This document shows, one piece after another, positions 6,150-19,005 of a DNA stretch of 32,000 nt (within the stretch, counting starts at the first letter, position 1; the number at the start of each line of letters is the position of its first letter). The DNA comes from an uncultured Poribacteria bacterium (lineage in GTDB: Bacteria > Poribacteria > WGA-4E > WGA-3G). The stretch spans positions 3,340,536 to 3,372,535 of the forward strand of contig CATQHZ020000001.1 in NCBI GenBank assembly GCA_958296135.2, in the 5' to 3' direction. The position numbers and the translations under genes are program-made. The notes under the pieces were generated by a model that worked only from the letters and a program-made list of their open reading frames with translations, was not told the DNA's origin and did no database searches.

Positions 6150-7568
6150 CTAATAGGGCCGGTCGCTCGTTGTCAACGCGCACCACCGCGAGGCGAACAG
6201 ATGGTTGAATAGCGCGTCCTGCGCCGCCGGCGTATGAATCTGCTTTAACGCCAGCGCAGCATGGAATCGGACATATCGGTTCTCGTCTTCCAACCGCTCA
6301 ACGAGGGTAGGAATTGCCGGTGCCGCGAGTTTCCCTAACTTTGTGAGCGCACGAGCGGCGTTGTCGCGAACCCAATAGAAATCATCACGTAATCCCGTTG
6401 TTAATACTTGCACCGCTTCCGTGAGTTCCGTTTCCGCTGCGACTTGCTGGCCGATGAGCCCTAAGCCTTCCATTGCGTGTCGCCGCACCCATTGACTGCT
6501 GTCTTGTGCGGCGCGCGTTAATGCAGGCACTGCCTCCTGCGCGGTTTTCCCCATATCCGCCAGCGCATACGCCGCGCTCGCCCGGACAGGCTCGGAATCG
6601 GCAGCAAGCGCGTCAATCAGCAGCGGCACCGCGGGAGTGCCCCTGATGCTCAACGCATACCCTGCATAATTGCAGACCGCGTCGGAAACGCTATACAACG
6701 CTTGTTTCAAGGCAGGCATTGCGGCATCGCCGCCCTGCCCCAAACGATAGGCGGCGTTCAAGCATGCGCGCTCGTCTTCGCTTGACAAGGTTTCAACCAG
6801 CGTCTCCACCTCAGCCGGCGACGCGCCGTTTGCAGTCCCGTTCGGTTTCCCATAATACCAATCCCAGAGTGATTCCCACATCGCAGGATGTTCCTCTGAA
6901 TCTGCGCAGCTGCCGAGGGATTTCCAATCTGAAGTCTGGCTATGCCACGCCGGCTCATTGTGCAAAGCCGGTTCGTCTAAGCGCGAAAAGAGGAACTTCA
7001 ACATATACCGCTTTTTGTCGCTCTGATTCGGCATCGCACGATGCCAGAGATCATAGTGGACAATCGTCACTGTACCGGCCTCACCACAGAGTGCGAGCTC
7101 GGGTTGCGCGTGCGCGCTCTCACCGGTATCGTAATACTGCGAACCGGGTAAAACGGCAGTCGGCCCCATGTCCTCCGTAACGTCCTGCGGATAATAGAAC
7201 GCCATCGTCCAGCGGCACCGGTGCCGGCGAATCTGCTCATCGCCTTCATAGGTATCCTTATGAAATACCTGTCCTTCGCTCCCTACTTGATTGTAGTGGC
7301 AGTATCGGTGCGGATGCATCACATAGTTGGGACCTAGGACTCCCTGCATCGCGCCGTGGACAACAGGATGCTCAAAGACTGCCTGAATTTCTGGGATGAG
7401 CGGGAGGACATTGTTGCCCAAATTGCCGGTCTGTGCGAACATCCGCTCCAGTTTGTCATAGATGTCCTCGTGAAAACTCGGCGGGAAATCAGCTTTCACC
7501 TTGACGTAGCCATTCATGATGAAATCCCGCATTGCCTGATCGGTAAGCTGCACTGCATTCGTATTCAT
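6150..7568 (-). CDS. Phytanoyl-CoA dioxygenase (PhyH) family Fe(II)/2-oxoglutarate oxygenase fused to C-terminal HEAT (PBS-lyase-like) repeats
   Basis: 472-aa ORF with AGGAGG upstream. The N-terminal half has FHKD (HxD) and a distal His in VHYDLWHRA. The C-terminal half has about 5 repeats of the type EPVRASAAYALADMG, SQWVRRHAMEGLGLIG, FYWVRDNAARALTKLG and NRYVRFHAALALKQI. Confidence 0.8.
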   Translation of the reverse strand: MNTNAVQLTDQAMRDFIMNGYVKVKADFPPSFHEDIYDKLERMFAQTGNLGNNVLPLIPEIQAVFEHPVVHGAMQGVLGPNYVMHPHRYCHYNQVGSEGQVFHKDTYEGDEQIRRHRCRWTMAFYYPQDVTEDMGPTAVLPGSQYYDTGESAHAQPELALCGEAGTVTIVHYDLWHRAMPNQSDKKRYMLKFLFSRLDEPALHNEPAWHSQTSDWKSLGSCADSEEHPAMWESLWDWYYGKPNGTANGASPAEVETLVETLSSEDERACLNAAYRLGQGGDAAMPALKQALYSVSDAVCNYAGYALSIRGTPAVPLLIDALAADSEPVRASAAYALADMGKTAQEAVPALTRAAQDSSQWVRRHAMEGLGLIGQQVAAETELTEAVQVLTTGLRDDFYWVRDNAARALTKLGKLAAPAIPTLVERLEDENRYVRFHAALALKQIHTPAAQDALFNHLFASRWCALTTSDRPY

Positions 7569-9957: not shown

Positions 9958-10473
9958 CTACGGAGAAATTGAAAACGTTTGAATGACATCGTTCATGAGG
10001 CACCTGTTGGCGATGGTTTCAAGCAACGCCACGTTCAGCGCGCCGGTGAACCTATATTTCGAGCCCGTGCAGACCGCGTTGACACCCGTGATGCCCAAAT
10101 CTTTGACGCCTTTGACAGTGCTATCGCCGACAGCGTCAGTAACACCGGGTTTGAATTGCACCTCAATAGTCCAGTCCTCAGTTGAGGTAGTCCTTGAGTG
10201 CTCACTTCTACCAGAAGAATTCGGGACAGGAAGGGCTTTCCTACTAGAAAGACGCGCTGCAGTATATGTCTGCGTTATCGGATCGGCGAGCAGTTCTGTA
10301 CTAATTCTATCAACAGTTTGTGCGTCAAGCGCGCCATCAAGCCAGAAGAGCGTCGCCGTTCGCACCGAATCAACGCCGCGAATCCCGAGGTCTGCGATAT
10401 CCTCAAGGATGCCCTGTCCAACGGTGTCAGGGACTTCCGGTTTATAGTAAACTTCAATTTTCCAAGTTGTCAT
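9958..10473 (-). CDS. purS: Tandem-duplicated PurS-like protein (two PurS modules in one chain)
   Basis: 171-aa ORF with a GGAG RBS. Residues 4-75 (WKIEVYYKPEVPDTVGQG..DLGIRGVDSVRT..LLADPITQTY) and 101-169 (WTIEVQFKPGVTDAVGDS..DLGITGVNAVCT..CLMNDVIQTF) are mutually similar. Each fits the PurS beta-alpha-beta-beta-alpha-beta pattern. They are joined by a Ser/Thr-rich linker. Confidence 0.6.
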   Translation of the reverse strand: MTTWKIEVYYKPEVPDTVGQGILEDIADLGIRGVDSVRTATLFWLDGALDAQTVDRISTELLADPITQTYTAARLSSRKALPVPNSSGRSEHSRTTSTEDWTIEVQFKPGVTDAVGDSTVKGVKDLGITGVNAVCTGSKYRFTGALNVALLETIANRCLMNDVIQTFSISP

Positions 10474-10502
10474 ATTTTCTCCATAACCAAGGTGAAATCA
10501 CC

Positions 10503-11348
10503 ATGTCCGTTAACCGAACACATTACGCCAGACAAAAAATTTTAGTTTTCGGCGCGCATCCCGATGATTGCGACATGCAAGCGGGAGGTGTCGCCGCCCT
10601 ATATACCCAACAGGGACATTGCGTGAAATTTGTCTCTGTGACTAACGGCGATGCCGGCCATCATGAAATGGGTGGCGGCACCTTGGCGCGCCGCAGGGCC
10701 GCCGAAGCACAAGCCGCCGCCGCAACCATCGGCATTGAATATGAACTGTTTGATAACCACGATGGCGAACTCTTGCCGACGTTAGAGAACCGCTATCAAA
10801 TCATTCGCACCATTCGCGAGTTTCAGCCAGCGCTAATTATGACACACCGACCGAACGATTACCATCCAGACCATCGGTATACGTCGATGTTGGTGCAGGA
10901 CGCGGCGTATATGGTAACGGTGCCGAACATTTGCGCGCTCACGCCGCACCTACAGAAGAATCCAGTCATTGTTTACCTGAACGACAGGTTCTTGAAACCC
11001 TATCCGTTCACGCCGGATGTCGCTGTCGGCATTGATGCCGTGGTAGAGCAGAAAATCGACATGCTACATTGCCATACCTCGCAACTCTACGAATGGCTGC
11101 CCTACAATAGCGGGACTTTAGCCGATGTCCCCGCGGGGGAAACAGCACGACGCGCATGGCTAGCGCAGCGGTTACTGACTCGATTCCACAGCATCGCTGA
11201 AAAGCACCGCGCGCTATTAGTCTCCCTCTACGGAGAAAAAGTTGGAAATGAAATCCAATACGCCGAAGTGTTTGAGGGGTGCGAATACGGGTCTCCGCTC
11301 ACAGCAGAGAATATCCCAACGCTCTTCCCCTTTTTTTCTAACTCCTAA
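10503..11348 (+). CDS. PIG-L/LmbE-family N-acetylglucosaminyl deacetylase
   Basis: I trimmed the start to ATG 10503 (MSVNRTHYARQKILVFGAHPDDCDMQAGG) with AAGGTGA upstream. The AHPDD and HPDH zinc-binding motifs are present. The longer ORF-track start (10320) would overlap purS. Confidence 0.8.
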   Translation: MSVNRTHYARQKILVFGAHPDDCDMQAGGVAALYTQQGHCVKFVSVTNGDAGHHEMGGGTLARRRAAEAQAAAATIGIEYELFDNHDGELLPTLENRYQIIRTIREFQPALIMTHRPNDYHPDHRYTSMLVQDAAYMVTVPNICALTPHLQKNPVIVYLNDRFLKPYPFTPDVAVGIDAVVEQKIDMLHCHTSQLYEWLPYNSGTLADVPAGETARRAWLAQRLLTRFHSIAEKHRALLVSLYGEKVGNEIQYAEVFEGCEYGSPLTAENIPTLFPFFSNS

Positions 11349-14937: not shown

Positions 14938-15121
14938 TAAAGTTCACCTTTTCTAAACATAGGTGAGGGACAGTGTCCTGCGCTGCAGGGGCACGTCTCT
15001 GGGGCAGACACCGAGTCGCGGTTTTCCTGAATCGATGCCCACTGTCCCGCAGAGATGCACGCGAAACAGCGGAACTACCCTCGTCCTAGTTTCGTGGGAA
15101 TTTCTCTCCTTTTTCACTTCA

Positions 15122-15146
15122 GGCGAAGGACAGGCCCTCGTCCTAC
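15122..15146 (-). repeat. REP-type repeat (reverse orientation, partly decayed stem) in the grpE-dnaJ spacer
   Basis: The plus strand reads GGCGAAGGACAGGCCCTCGTCCTAC, which is the reverse complement of GTAGGACGAGGGCCTGTCCTTCGCC. Confidence 0.65.
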
Positions 15147-15263
15147 GTCAAACCAGAACTGCAAGGATTTGACAACGTCAATGCGGCCTGATAAGACAAC
15201 CTCTCAGGATACTGGTAACTAAACAGTGCCCCGCGAACAACAAATTACGCTGCAGCGTCACTG

Positions 15264-15950: not shown

Positions 15951-16035
15951 TATTCTTCCTTTGTTGGGTTAGGTATCGGGCATGCGCGTGTTGAAAGCGC
16001 GCCGGTTGCCCCGTGACTACTGAGTTTGGTTCGCG

Positions 16036-16782
16036 TTAGCCATGAACAGCATCGGCGAACTGTTTCATCAGTTCAAACGAGCCATTTTCTTCAAGCACAT
16101 TGCCTGTGACGATGAAATCCGCCCCGGCGTTGACTTTTTTCTCGGCGAGCACTGGCGTGCGGATGCCGCCGCCGACAATCAATGGAATGTTGATGTACGC
16201 TTTCACTGCGGCAATCATCGCATCCGAGACAGCGTGCTTCGCGCCACTGCCAGCCTCCAAGTAGACGAGCTTCATACCGAGGTATTGGGCGGCTAACGCG
16301 TGCGGGCCCGCGATATCCGGCTTATTGCGCGGAATCGGCATCGTGCCACTCACGAATTCAACAGCAGTTCGGTTGCCGCCTTCAATCAACAAGTAGCCGG
16401 TGGGGATGGGTTCTAGCGCGTAGCGTTGAATCCACGGCGCGGCTTTCACCTGTTCCCCGATGAGATAGTTCGGGTTTCTGCCACTGATGAGGCTCATGTA
16501 GAGAATCGCATCGGCGTGTGCAGTGAGGTGCATTGAGTCCCCCGGGAAAAGCACGATAGGGAGGCGTGTCGCGTTTTTCAACGTTTCCGCAATCGGATGC
16601 AAGGCGGTTGTTAAAAAACTGCCGCCGAGCAGAATCGCATCTGCACCTGCCTGTTCAACGTCGCATGCAAGCCGGGCGCACGTCGCAACCTCACACTGCT
16701 CCGGATCGAGCAGGACAAGATAGCCAGCACGATGTCTATTCAGGACCTCGTGGAAGTGGTTCAGAACCCAATGTGAAGCCAA
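16036..16782 (-). CDS. Geranylgeranylglyceryl phosphate synthase family protein (GGGPS/PcrB TIM-barrel prenyltransferase)
   Basis: 248 aa with a TTG start and AAGGA upstream. Family landmarks are LLDPEQ, GADAILLGGS, LPIVLFPG, YLEAGSGA and PLIVGGGIRT...GADFIVTGNV. The YLEAGSG form resembles archaeal/Bacteroidetes-type GGGPS more than Bacillus PcrB (recalled from memory; needs an HMM or tree). Confidence 0.75.
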   Translation of the reverse strand: MASHWVLNHFHEVLNRHRAGYLVLLDPEQCEVATCARLACDVEQAGADAILLGGSFLTTALHPIAETLKNATRLPIVLFPGDSMHLTAHADAILYMSLISGRNPNYLIGEQVKAAPWIQRYALEPIPTGYLLIEGGNRTAVEFVSGTMPIPRNKPDIAGPHALAAQYLGMKLVYLEAGSGAKHAVSDAMIAAVKAYINIPLIVGGGIRTPVLAEKKVNAGADFIVTGNVLEENGSFELMKQFADAVHG

Positions 16783-16848
16783 ATGGAAACGTTCCTTCTC
16801 AATAAAGCGTTTACGGATTTGCGCGTGTTTCCCGCGCGTGTCCTAATT

Positions 16849-16877
16849 ATTTTACCACATTTATGCCCATTTGTCAA
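16849..16877 (-). promoter_or_regulatory. Near-consensus sigma70 promoter for the GGGPS-like gene
   Basis: On the minus strand: TTGACA (16877-16872, overlapping the upstream gene's TGA), 17-nt spacer, TAAAAT (16854-16849). The leader contains the direct repeat ACACGCGC twice. Confidence 0.55.
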
Positions 16878-18127
16878 ATTATTCGCCGCGCCAATTCGTA
16901 GAGCAAAACGCCTGCAGCGACACCGACATTGAGCGACGCTTGGCTTTGCCTTCTTCCCGCTGCTGTTAGCACGCCAGGTGCCATCGGGATACCTACCAAG
17001 TCCGTGCAACCTTCGCGTGCCTGCACAGAAATACCGGTATGTTCATTGCCCACGACAACAGCGGTAGGCGGTTCAAGTTCTAGCGTGTAGAGGGATTTCT
17101 CGGTGTGCGCAGTCGCGCCTAGCACAGTCCAACCCGCCTTTTGAAGTGCTTCAAGTGCAGGTGCGGTATCCGCCGAGAAAAAGAGGGGAAAGCGGCCCAC
17201 CGCGCCGCGCGCAGCACGAATGCAGTTTTTATGAAAAGGACTTGCGCCTTCGCCACACAGCAAAACAGCAGAAACTCCTGCCGCGTCCGCTGTCCGCAGC
17301 GTCATTCCTAAATTATCAGGATTCCCGATATTTTCGGCGATGAGCAGCGTGCAACTCGGACTAAAGTGAAAATTTAGTTCATTAGATGCTGCCAAAAACC
17401 GGCGATAGTTGAGATGCACCGAAGCCACTACCAGCGGCACAGGACGAGTTGTGGTAACCGAACCCATGATGCCATCGCTGACTTGGTAGTAGGCGAGATT
17501 CTCCGCATGCGCCCGCGTGAGAAGGCTTTTCCCTTCTGATGTCGCAAGGAAACCGGCAGTGTAGAGAATCGTTTCCACCGGCAATCCGTCTGCCACGGCG
17601 CGCGCAACGATGCGCGCCCCTTCTATCACAAATTGCTTGTGCGCAAGTTTGCCCTTTAAGGCGGTTAATTTCCGAAACTGTGAAGCGATTGCATCCTTGC
17701 GCCTCGAAATGGTTCGCCGTTCCGCCTTGTTCTCACTGCCCCGTTTGACACCCCGATAAAAGCACCCTGCATCGGTTTGGACAAATTCACCCACTAGCAC
17801 TTCCCTCAGCGCGTTGTCCATCCATGTCTCTGGGACATGAAACATGCCGATACTTTGCCGTGGATAAGCGAGCAGAAGTTCGCGCAACGCCCTTTCCGTT
17901 GTGGCGGTGATGGACACTTCGTAGTCAACCCTTTCATTTTCCGCGTCCGTTTCGTGTGTCGTGCCCGTTGGCCACATTAGCATCACACCATCGATTTTTT
18001 GCCATCCAGAAACACTCACCTCATAGGAGCAATCCCCTGAGCGCGATGCCTTAAAACGGGAAACTGCATCGGAAACCTCGGTGCCTTCTCTCTCCAAAAA
18101 AGCGATGATGTTTTCGTAGATGTCCAT
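16874..18127 (-). CDS. SpoU/TrmH-family RNA 2'-O-methyltransferase with an uncharacterised N-terminal domain of about 170 aa
   Basis: I trimmed the start to ATG 18127 (MDIYENII), 2 nt after the UbiA stop. The C-terminal half has an L30e-like substrate-binding module and SPOUT motifs (LLIAENIGNPDNLGMTLRTADAAG, VVVGNEHTGIS, SLNVGVAAGVLLYE). I do not recognise the N-terminal 170 aa. Confidence 0.75.
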   Translation of the reverse strand: MDIYENIIAFLEREGTEVSDAVSRFKASRSGDCSYEVSVSGWQKIDGVMLMWPTGTTHETDAENERVDYEVSITATTERALRELLLAYPRQSIGMFHVPETWMDNALREVLVGEFVQTDAGCFYRGVKRGSENKAERRTISRRKDAIASQFRKLTALKGKLAHKQFVIEGARIVARAVADGLPVETILYTAGFLATSEGKSLLTRAHAENLAYYQVSDGIMGSVTTTRPVPLVVASVHLNYRRFLAASNELNFHFSPSCTLLIAENIGNPDNLGMTLRTADAAGVSAVLLCGEGASPFHKNCIRAARGAVGRFPLFFSADTAPALEALQKAGWTVLGATAHTEKSLYTLELEPPTAVVVGNEHTGISVQAREGCTDLVGIPMAPGVLTAAGRRQSQASLNVGVAAGVLLYELARRII

Positions 18128-18129
18128 AA

Positions 18130-19005
18130 TTACCAAAACGTTCCGAGATAAATCGCCCCAAGCCCGATAAATATGTCCCACTTCATCCAGCGTTGAATGA
18201 AGGCGCAGTTTTCCTTAGCGGCATCTCTCCACAACCGAATGCCCAAGTAGAGGATAACCAGATCTACGCCGAGCACAACAACCACTAAATAGATGCCTGA
18301 ATACCACCCGAATAGGTACGGGATAGGACTCAACAAGATGACTACGGCTAAGCAGACTAACGCGATTTTCACGGCGAGTCGCGGGTTGAGAATCGCCAGC
18401 GTCTTAACACCGTTTTTCAAGTCGCCCTCCGTGTCCTCGAGGTCTTTCACAATTTCGCGCGGCAATGTGAACAAGAACGCGAACATTGCAGGAACAAGCG
18501 TGCCTGCCACCGATTCTATCGCTACGCCGCCGGCAATGAAGGTTAACCCTGTCAATCCGCTGACAACTAGATTGCCAATGAACGGCGTGCGTTTCAGCCA
18601 GAGCGCGTAGGTGAAAACGGCGATGGAGACGAGCATCGCGATGCCGAGTGCGTAAACGTTGATGCACGCGCCAAGCCCGATGCCAAGAGCGATGAGGCAT
18701 ATCGCAAAAATCAGCGCGGCGCGCCTGCGAATGCGCCCGGAAGGGAGCGGCCGCTGGGCCCTGTTGATGCAATCGATGTCGTAATCACAGTAATCGTTTA
18801 TCGCGTTTCCAGCGGAGAGCAAGACAAGTGCCGAGACAGAGACAAGCCAGATTCGGATATCAATGAGGTTCTCCCACCTGTCTGCGCTAGCAAACATGCC
18901 ACCGAGCCACGCGGAAACAAAAGCGATGACACCATTCAGTGGGCGCGCCAACTCAACATAATTTTTCGTCTGTCGCAATGCGTTCGATAAAGTAGATTGG
19001 TGCAA
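18130..19005 (-). CDS. UbiA-superfamily membrane prenyltransferase, DGGGP-synthase-like
   Basis: 291 aa, polytopic membrane protein. First Asp-rich motif is NAINDYCDYDIDCINRAQRPLPSGRI. Second is KDLEDTEGDLKNGVKTLA. A TTG start is the only start available before the conserved YVELARPLN. Confidence 0.75.
   Translation of the reverse strand: MHQSTLSNALRQTKNYVELARPLNGVIAFVSAWLGGMFASADRWENLIDIRIWLVSVSALVLLSAGNAINDYCDYDIDCINRAQRPLPSGRIRRRAALIFAICLIALGIGLGACINVYALGIAMLVSIAVFTYALWLKRTPFIGNLVVSGLTGLTFIAGGVAIESVAGTLVPAMFAFLFTLPREIVKDLEDTEGDLKNGVKTLAILNPRLAVKIALVCLAVVILLSPIPYLFGWYSGIYLVVVVLGVDLVILYLGIRLWRDAAKENCAFIQRWMKWDIFIGLGAIYLGTFW

Follow-up and report, generated by a model that had tools for sequence, protein, structure and literature searches.

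A putative two-enzyme module for isoprenoid glycerol ethers on a Poribacteria chromosome

Whether a natural bacterium makes archaeal-type lipids beside its bacterial ones is a central question of the lipid divide, and so far it has been addressed mainly through uncultured Cloacimonetes genomes and expression in E. coli. The same question is raised by a 32,000-nucleotide stretch of DNA, here called the window, from an uncultured member of the Poribacteria (assembly GCA_958296135.2, contig CATQHZ020000001.1, positions 3,340,536 to 3,372,535), a candidate phylum known chiefly for its sponge symbionts. On its minus strand lies a co-directional row of genes spanning ~23.5 kb to 11.7 kb of the window, in which the outer-membrane genes bamA, skp and lpxD are followed by a UbiA-family gene resembling digeranylgeranylglyceryl phosphate synthase (DGGGPS), a SpoU-methylase fusion gene and a gene of the geranylgeranylglyceryl phosphate synthase (GGGPS) family. 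The genes and features that an earlier note on this DNA had described were all recovered in place by open reading frame (ORF) calls and Pfam, and the motifs that it had cited, i.e., LLDPEQ, YLEAGSGA and GGGIRT as well as NDYCDYDIDCINRAQRPLPSG and DTEGDLKNGVKTLAI, are all present in the translations. We consider it probable, at roughly 0.68, that the window carries a conserved two-enzyme module for isoprenoid glycerol ethers, a reading built on sequence comparison.

Does the GGGPS-family gene (16782-16036, minus strand, 248 aa; PcrB, PF01884, 160.9 bits) encode a GGGPS or a heptaprenylglyceryl phosphate synthase (HepGPS) of the Bacillus PcrB kind? Relative to the curated cut-offs, the protein passed the GGGP equivalog model TIGR01769 (219.5 bits versus 161.55), NF003198 (286.6 versus 247) and TIGR01768 (175.6 versus 113.25). 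The heptaprenyl (HepGPS/PcrB) model NF003197 gave 25 bits versus a cut-off of 260, and TIGR04146 (Archaeoglobus type) gave 41 bits. In the PDB, matches were obtained to the enzymes from Methanothermobacter (4mm1, 2.7e-53, 184.1 bits) and Flavobacterium (4jej, 1.2e-52, 181.9 bits), with the group II structures 4mm1, 4jej, 6jo3 and 6nke, Thermoplasma included, spanning 1e-53 to 1e-44. The PcrB structure 4naf matched at only 5e-4, and the PDB search returned no match to the group Ia Archaeoglobus structure at E<=1e-3.

The residues expected of a working enzyme are in place. The Mg2+/diphosphate residues D26, E28 and S55 aligned with D25, E27 and S54 of the Methanothermobacter protein, the Tyr/Tyr/Glu triad Y130, Y174 and E176 aligned with Y134, Y178 and E180 of the Flavobacterium johnsoniae protein, and the phosphate-binding Gly loops were kept in the alignments. 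All six residues are invariant in 10 diverse Poribacteria sequences, and the triad is thought to set GGGPS stereospecificity and catalysis (PMC9385802). At the proposed C20 chain-length limiter in helix alpha-3', which for group II has been described as ill-defined (PMC9385802), the window protein has L86 (V86 in Methanothermobacter, I90 in Flavobacterium), a residue invariant in the phylum. The aromatic anchor that forms the hexamer (W141 in 4mm1, Ala in the variant 5nf1, Arg in Flavobacterium) corresponds to F143 here, and the Poribacteria enzyme may be a hexamer. The Flavobacterium enzyme is reportedly a dimer, as Peterhoff et al. are said to have found in 2014. By these matches the TIM-barrel enzyme of the window falls into group II of GGGPS and is no PcrB of the Bacillus type, and the family identity given by the earlier note holds by the curated cut-offs, the PDB matches and the conserved residues alike. 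Translation would begin at a TTG preceded by a GAAGGAA Shine-Dalgarno sequence. This TTG start (16780-16782) recurs in nearly all sponge-type loci (L006-L085), with ATG in the deep lineages where a geranylgeranyl reductase (GGR) gene precedes.

The second question is whether the UbiA-family gene (19005-18130, minus strand, 291 aa; PF01040, 156.9 bits versus 34.2) belongs with DGGGPS or with the quinone, haem or chlorophyll prenyltransferases. Its three top NCBIfam models were all of DGGGPS type, i.e., NF009523 (220 bits), NF009521 (207 bits) and NF009522 (177 bits), and the other subfamily models scored 84 (ChlG), 68 (haem O synthase, CtaB), 54 (UbiA) and 24 bits (MenA). The sole strong PDB match was the Methanocaldococcus enzyme MjDGGGPS (6m31, 2e-38), followed by ChlG at 4e-9 and UbiA at 5e-5. 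The protein aligned end to end with MjDGGGPS, which has nine transmembrane segments, at ~35-40% identity, and several hydrophobic stretches are spread along its sequence. All residues with mutagenesis support in MjDGGGPS are kept: motif 1, N-x3-D-x3-D, is formed by N70, D74 and D78 (N62, D66 and D70 in MjDGGGPS), motif 2, Y-x5-K, by Y133 and K138 (Y125 and K130), and motif 3, D-x2-D-x3-D, by D188, D191 and D195 (D180, D183 and D187). The three motifs are invariant in 69/69 Poribacteria sequences that are 53-82% identical overall. Database names agree: a Poribacteria homologue 47% identical carries the NCBI product name DGGGPS, close homologues are named DGGGPS by JGI too, and among the nearest ten 50%-identity cluster representatives three are named, all of them DGGGPS.

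With the subfamily placement based on profile hidden Markov model (HMM) and PDB scores, the window protein is thus predicted to be an orthologue in the DGGGPS branch with its catalytic residues intact; the DGGGPS-like identity proposed earlier is borne out by these scores and by gene linkage in relatives. A Ubi-297-type aromatic prenyltransferase was also considered and rejected, as the Ubi-297 paper puts Ubi-297 in a UbiA group other than the DGGGPS-like one. Most homologues are 282 aa long, and the true start may be the second in-frame TTG at 18978 (282 aa) instead of the TTG at 19005; of the two candidate starts, only that at 19005 has an AGGAA Shine-Dalgarno sequence.

To what extent do the two genes travel together? 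Synteny was followed in the best 80 loci of a species-representative genome collection, all of them titled as Poribacteria save for a few whose label is just "uncultured bacterium". Nearly all 80 retain GGGPS-grpE-dnaJ-prmA, with hrcA between GGGPS and grpE in the deepest lineages, and grpE and dnaJ are the most constant GGGPS neighbours across the phylum. The order bamA-skp-lpxD-(0-3 kb)-UbiA-SpoU-GGGPS was observed in ~63 of the 80 loci, where UbiA lies within ~2.2 kb upstream of GGGPS (1.35 kb in the window). A small 4Fe-4S ferredoxin gene and a GGR gene stand immediately upstream of GGGPS in 7/80, and UbiA is contiguous with GGGPS or GGR-GGGPS in L022, L081, L093, L094, L096, L097 and L149; it directly adjoins GGGPS in L022, and the order in L081 is UbiA-ferredoxin-GGR-GGGPS. 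A metagenome scan with a UbiA profile returned five loci with contiguous UbiA-GGR-GGGPS, in which UbiA is 43-49% identical to that of the window and two of which have lpxD and bamA upstream; a sixth, short contig carries UbiA-GGR (UbiA 50% identical). Around more distant UbiA homologues, in ~30 loci of at least 8 kb, GGGPS was nearby in none. Compared with the nearest relative, L006 (dS ~0.8-0.9), dN/dS was 0.08 for GGGPS, 0.10 for UbiA and 0.14 for the SpoU fusion. GGGPS and UbiA are conserved phylum-wide and under purifying selection, and the finding that three or four archaeal-type lipid genes are linked time and again is strong evidence, the strongest that context provides, for one predicted isoprenoid-ether pathway.

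In relatives, other genes fill 1-3 kb between lpxD and UbiA, among them one with a Schlafen/AlbA_2 domain (PF04326), and an IS630 fragment is seen there too. L094 has the arrangement skp-lpxD-polysaccharide deacetylase-UbiA paralogue-pyruvyl transferase-unknown-DGGGPS-like-(ferredoxin-GGR fusion)-GGGPS. Such extra genes occur in many Poribacteria (L024:6811-7788, L081:5496-7449, L080:1748-3786, L094:5236-9818, L091:1-1579) and none is present in the window. They include a second, divergent UbiA paralogue with an NQIADRETD motif and the C-terminus RWYYxxRFGIRYP, for which the top NCBIfam score was only 54 bits, and in deeper lineages a polysaccharide deacetylase and a pyruvyl transferase also lie between lpxD and the DGGGPS-like gene. 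An envelope glycolipid route encoded by these genes is possible.

In relatives, the linked GGR has the Thermoplasma digeranylgeranylglycerophospholipid reductase 3oz2 as a match at 1e-73, shares ~50% identity with the GGRs of Methanosarcinales, and has the 4Fe-4S ferredoxin adjacent or fused to it. In 9/9 distinct sequences (L004:7805-8998, L044:8535-9731, L047, L080, L081:8723-9916, L083-L085 and L087:9806-10999; the GGRs of L005 and L086 are identical copies and stand outside the nine) the frame contains one in-frame TGA, in the context ...EKRQEIGxPxR-TGA-AEGIGT. The residue aligned with this TGA is Cys both in full-length proteins of Poribacteria and Methanosarcinales (PVRCAEG) and in the Thermoplasma structure (PVRCGEG). 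A conserved 7-bp hairpin resembling a selenocysteine insertion sequence (SECIS) lies 16 nt 3' of the TGA; its 3-nt loop begins with G, pairing holds in 98% of cells, and one pair covaries from C-G to A-U, in addition to two wobble changes. The control with Cys-form GGR genes was ambiguous, as one of two loci also folds a weaker hairpin there. Many database GGR entries are only 283-346 aa long, as expected if gene callers end at the TGA. Selenocysteine-containing hydrogenases have been reported in Poribacteria, and SelA and SelB are enriched in sponge symbionts according to the literature; none of the three papers that a full-text literature search gave for selenocysteine combined with geranylgeranyl reductase deals with such an enzyme. 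The GGR of many relatives is, on this evidence, a candidate selenoprotein.

How the two prenyltransferase genes of the window are expressed bears on whether they form one unit with their neighbours. A predicted sigma-70-type promoter precedes GGGPS (16877-16849, minus strand; TTGACA, 17 nt, TGgTAAAAT); it matches 11/12 consensus positions, carries TG ahead of the -10 box, has a -35 box that overlaps the stop codon of SpoU and ranks first among the sites in 10.5 kb. Under a strict pattern it is kept in 67/86 related loci, including those with unrelated upstream genes, and because of this conservation it is not a chance match; the separate near-consensus promoter claimed in the earlier note is upheld. 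A few further loci have a TAGAAT -10 box upstream of GGGPS, and the promoter is missing in every locus with ferredoxin-GGR directly before GGGPS and in a few others. No conserved promoter turned up ahead of UbiA, in the 128-nt gap that follows lpxD. In this lineage GGGPS would thus be transcribed alone or with grpE-dnaJ, and UbiA-SpoU would be a separate unit, perhaps with read-through from lpxD. The GGGPS gene is also flanked by two short GC-rich hairpins (GCGCG, a 7-9 nt loop, CGCGC), one in its 5' leader (16820-16838) and one right after its stop (15983-16001), neither followed by a T-run.

The gene between the two prenyltransferases (18127-16874, minus strand, ORF from 18181, 417 aa; SpoU_methylase, 101.9 bits, and MRM3-like_sub_bind) appears to encode an RlmB/TrmH-like SPOUT RNA 2'-O-methyltransferase with an L30e-like substrate-binding domain. 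Pfam placed SpoU_methylase at residues 280-428 and MRM3-like_sub_bind at residues 168-245, and RlmB (TIGR00186) scored 102 bits, under its cut-off of 160. An extra N-terminal domain of ~150 aa (17678-18127) is 35-58% identical across Poribacteria; a 20-sequence profile of it found no relative in Pfam or the PDB, and single-sequence AlphaFold modelling of the fusion yielded no usable fold (pLDDT 41). The tight coupling to UbiA noted earlier is real: only TT separates the UbiA stop TAA (18132-18130) from the SpoU ATG at 18127, i.e., the gap is 2 nt. The SpoU fusion is dispensable, because it is missing from L022 and L081, where UbiA adjoins (ferredoxin-GGR-)GGGPS, and it is probably a passenger gene.

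What, then, would the two enzymes make? In the proposed first step, the soluble group II GGGPS would attach a C20 geranylgeranyl chain from geranylgeranyl diphosphate (GGPP) to glycerol phosphate; in the second, the membrane-bound UbiA-family DGGGPS orthologue would add a second chain, giving a diether resembling digeranylgeranylglyceryl phosphate. The nature of the substrates (C20 chains; glycerol-1-phosphate (G1P) versus glycerol-3-phosphate (G3P)), the entry of the product into the membrane and its abundance are what we infer beyond the enzyme identities. The ancestral gene order was probably lpxD-(glycan enzymes and second UbiA paralogue)-DGGGPS-(ferredoxin)GGR-GGGPS. In the sponge-associated lineage of the window, the SPOUT RNA methyltransferase gene stands between the two prenyltransferase genes, GGR would have gone from the locus and probably from the genome, and GGGPS would use its own promoter.

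Several observations weigh against this reading. The UbiA protein missed the cut-offs of all three DGGGPS models (269 bits for NF009523, 296 for NF009521 and 353 for NF009522), which appear to be tuned to archaeal sequences. In GGGPS the usual group II Thr of the beta-alpha-8 phosphate-binding loop is absent and replaced by N228 (VTGN); the Methanothermobacter protein has VTGT there, that of Flavobacterium IGT and those of the deepest Poribacteria lineages VTGT. N228 is a variant and no disqualifier, as Asn and Thr both occur in active enzymes. The 32-kb window contains, by Pfam, no gene for a G1P dehydrogenase (G1PDH), CarS, a polyprenyl/GGPP synthase or GGR, and among the Poribacteria enzymes found in a survey of 2016 were GpsA and GlpK but not EgsA/AraM (PMC5059525). 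The earlier note had treated the absence of a G1P-forming enzyme as a refutation, which is too strong. No protein of the window genome occurred among the top 120 GGR homologues listed, which reach down to 46% identity and show one representative per cluster; this is suggestive of a genome that has no GGR and in which chain saturation may be lacking. In ~15 species loci GGGPS stands without UbiA within 10 kb, with unrelated upstream genes and no lpxD near, and in some lineages the second prenylation step may be dispensable. L088, from a 6.02-Mb genome, keeps SpoU-GGGPS and has only a 33-aa ORF at the place of UbiA. In some Poribacteria lineages the module is undergoing rearrangement or erosion. 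IS605/DDE transposase genes were also seen near the L088 locus, and in the same genome a ferredoxin-GGR pair lies ~340 kb from GGGPS, beside a PhyH gene (L086/L087).

Among the alternatives, both enzymes could be active and yet make a specialised, low-abundance isoprenoid ether, i.e., a G3P-based lipid, a mono-ether or a lipid anchor for envelope glycans, instead of bulk phospholipid. We regard this as unlikely, though well short of negligible. It would agree with a window free of G1PDH and CarS genes, in a phylum for which none was reported in 2016 (PMC5059525), with the documented promiscuity of GGGPS for G3P (PMC7852524; PMC9385802), with the occurrence of GGGPS without linked UbiA in some species, and with the polysaccharide deacetylase, UbiA paralogue and pyruvyl transferase that separate lpxD from the DGGGPS-like gene in relatives. 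Bacillus PcrB makes an ether lipid that is not membrane bulk (PMC9179154). Set against this is the type of the linked reductase: a digeranylgeranylglycerophospholipid GGR accompanied by the ferredoxin expected for full saturation fits archaeol-like diethers. The placement of the genes suggests a different possibility, namely that they are part of an outer-membrane and lipopolysaccharide operon, co-transcribed and co-regulated with bamA-skp-lpxD. All genes do point the same way, lpxD and UbiA have stayed neighbours from the deepest Poribacteria lineages to the window, and UbiA has no conserved promoter of its own that we could find; GGGPS does have one, and relatives tolerate the 1-3 kb inserts (PF04326 gene, IS630 fragment) between lpxD and UbiA. 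Moreover, the full syntenic block reads ilvE-bamA-skp-lpxD-UbiA-SpoU-GGGPS-grpE-dnaJ-prmA. Because it includes ilvE, the SPOUT methylase, grpE, dnaJ and prmA, with clearly unrelated housekeeping genes among them, gene order alone says little on coordinated envelope synthesis. We judge a shared operon improbable; the coordinated envelope biosynthesis for which the earlier note saw a hint in this placement reduces to position, with variable inserts and housekeeping genes in the same block, and the bamA-skp-lpxD neighbourhood is better described as a likely case of old inherited synteny.

Use of the enzymes in the opposite direction, for salvage or breakdown of lipids from co-resident sponge archaea, follows a suggestion of reverse catabolic use raised for FCB-group (Fibrobacteres-Chlorobi-Bacteroidetes) bacteria without G1PDH (Coleman et al. 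2019, PMC6431249). There is no precedent for these prenyltransferases in reverse, the same cluster is present in free-living relatives from non-sponge metagenomes, and the linkage to reductase and ferredoxin suggests biosynthesis; we hold salvage to be very improbable. Equally at odds with the evidence is the alternative that the earlier note itself had offered, a PcrB-like HepGPS paired with an unrelated quinone or haem prenyltransferase, here extended to chlorophyll prenyltransferases. The broad families PF01884 and PF01040 do cover such enzymes, and the UbiA protein does fall under the DGGGPS equivalog cut-offs. The HepGPS score was less than a tenth of its cut-off while the GGGP equivalog was passed, PcrB matched at 5e-4 versus 1e-53 for group II, and the MenA, UbiA, CtaB and ChlG models reached 24-84 bits versus 177-220 for the DGGGPS type; the UbiA gene is, in addition, repeatedly contiguous with GGR and GGGPS. 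This pairing is rejected by the HMM and PDB scores, with linkage in relatives also contrary to it, and we consider it strongly disfavoured, to the point of being scarcely credible. The predicted isoprenoid-ether module is the reading that we retain.

A further-reaching version of that reading is that Poribacteria, which stand outside the lineages reported to date, are a second bacterial lineage with a clustered archaeal-type diether pathway (ancestrally DGGGPS-(ferredoxin)-GGR-GGGPS), with a selenoprotein reductase in many members and with naturally mixed membranes in which isoprenoid diethers occur next to lipid A and fatty-acid lipids; the lineage of the window, left with just the two ether-forming enzymes, would perhaps make unsaturated diethers. 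We offer this tentatively, as a possibility with the odds leaning somewhat against it. Poribacteria would serve well as a second, practical test case: closed chromosomes number in the dozens, the organisms are abundant in sponges, which can be collected and fractionated, and the cluster is conserved, with a saturating reductase and ferredoxin in relatives. The natural differences between lineages, i.e., with or without GGR and with or without linked DGGGPS, could be matched to lipid profiles. An isoprenoid route would also be added to the debate on the producers of sponge ether lipids, in which one preprint considered only bacterial alkyl-ether and plasmalogen pathways (elb, agps, ger) for Poribacteria.

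The remaining genes of the row and the window are as follows. Upstream of the pair, all on the minus strand, are bamA (23536-21059; TIGR03303 BamA, 407.7 bits, with POTRA and Omp85 by Pfam), skp/OmpH (20938-20324; OmpH, 91.7 bits) and lpxD (20207-19134; TIGR01853 lpxD, 363.8 bits). Downstream on the same strand are grpE (15950-15264; Pfam GrpE), dnaJ (14937-13810; Pfam DnaJ), a D12-class adenine methylase gene (13706-12733) and prmA (12701-11694). The grpE-dnaJ spacer (14938-15263) is unusually long at 326 nt, compared with ~30 nt in relatives such as L001, and it contains an imperfect inverted repeat (14964-14989 / 15026-15051). Two overlapping ORFs, each in its own frame, make up the D12-class (Dam-like) methyltransferase gene and cover profile positions 1-74 and 85-252. 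The gene sits between dnaJ and prmA, which are contiguous in relatives, and its split marks either a pseudogene with a frameshift or an error of sequencing. Genes for a PIG-L/LmbE-family de-N-acetylase (10320-11348, plus strand) and for a protein with PhyH (phytanoyl-CoA dioxygenase family) and HEAT repeats (6150-7568, minus strand) lie past prmA at a distance of a few kb. In L001, L004 and L086, PIG-L and PhyH genes are again seen close to this block or to the unlinked GGR; to tie them to lipid head-group or isoprenoid chemistry would be purely speculative. The other genes of the window are ordinary housekeeping and transport genes. Scans of the window found no tRNA gene and no Rfam family, and a repeat search around the genes returned short matches only, probably due to chance.

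How does the Poribacteria pair compare with known systems? GGGPS/DGGGPS pairs have been documented in FCB-group bacteria and related candidate phyla, and in E. coli the expressed Cloacimonetes homologues of both enzymes supported the formation of archaeal-type lipids (PMC7852524, PMC6431249). Villanueva et al. (2020) concluded that co-localisation in bacteria seems limited to Cloacimonetes, from a search of FCB genomes only (PMC7852524). Poribacteria are not named in the phylum lists of these two papers (PMC7852524, PMC6431249) or in the supplement that was searched, and we found no report for the phylum. The likeness to Cloacimonetes is close: both are diderms with ordinary bacterial envelope genes in which a group II GGGPS and a DGGGPS-like UbiA protein are encoded at co-localised genes, and in both no G1PDH is evident. 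They differ in that the pair of the window is split by the SPOUT methylase gene, with GGGPS on its own promoter, and that Poribacteria relatives add ferredoxin and GGR. Bacillus PcrB (group Ib) shares the Pfam family PF01884 and the kind of reaction with the window GGGPS, but it is very distant in sequence, and the window protein does not belong to that group. The group IIb GGGPS of Bacteroidetes (Flavobacterium johnsoniae, 4jej; Peterhoff et al. 2014, reviewed in PMC9385802) matches the window protein about as well as the archaeal 4mm1 does, and differs from it in having Arg in place of the aromatic F143. With the archaeal pathway, which comprises G1PDH, GGPP synthase, GGGPS (4mm1, group IIa), DGGGPS (6m31), CarS and GGR with ferredoxin (3oz2), the Poribacteria GGGPS and DGGGPS have their catalytic residues in common, and the GGR of relatives its ~50% identity to Methanosarcinales and its adjacent or fused ferredoxin; unlike an archaeon, the host is a diderm that has genes for lipid A and BamA, and GGR is gone from the window locus. 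The Poribacteria pair is a further case of the known FCB-type pairs, and what it adds is the clustering with GGR and ferredoxin and the availability of many closed genomes.

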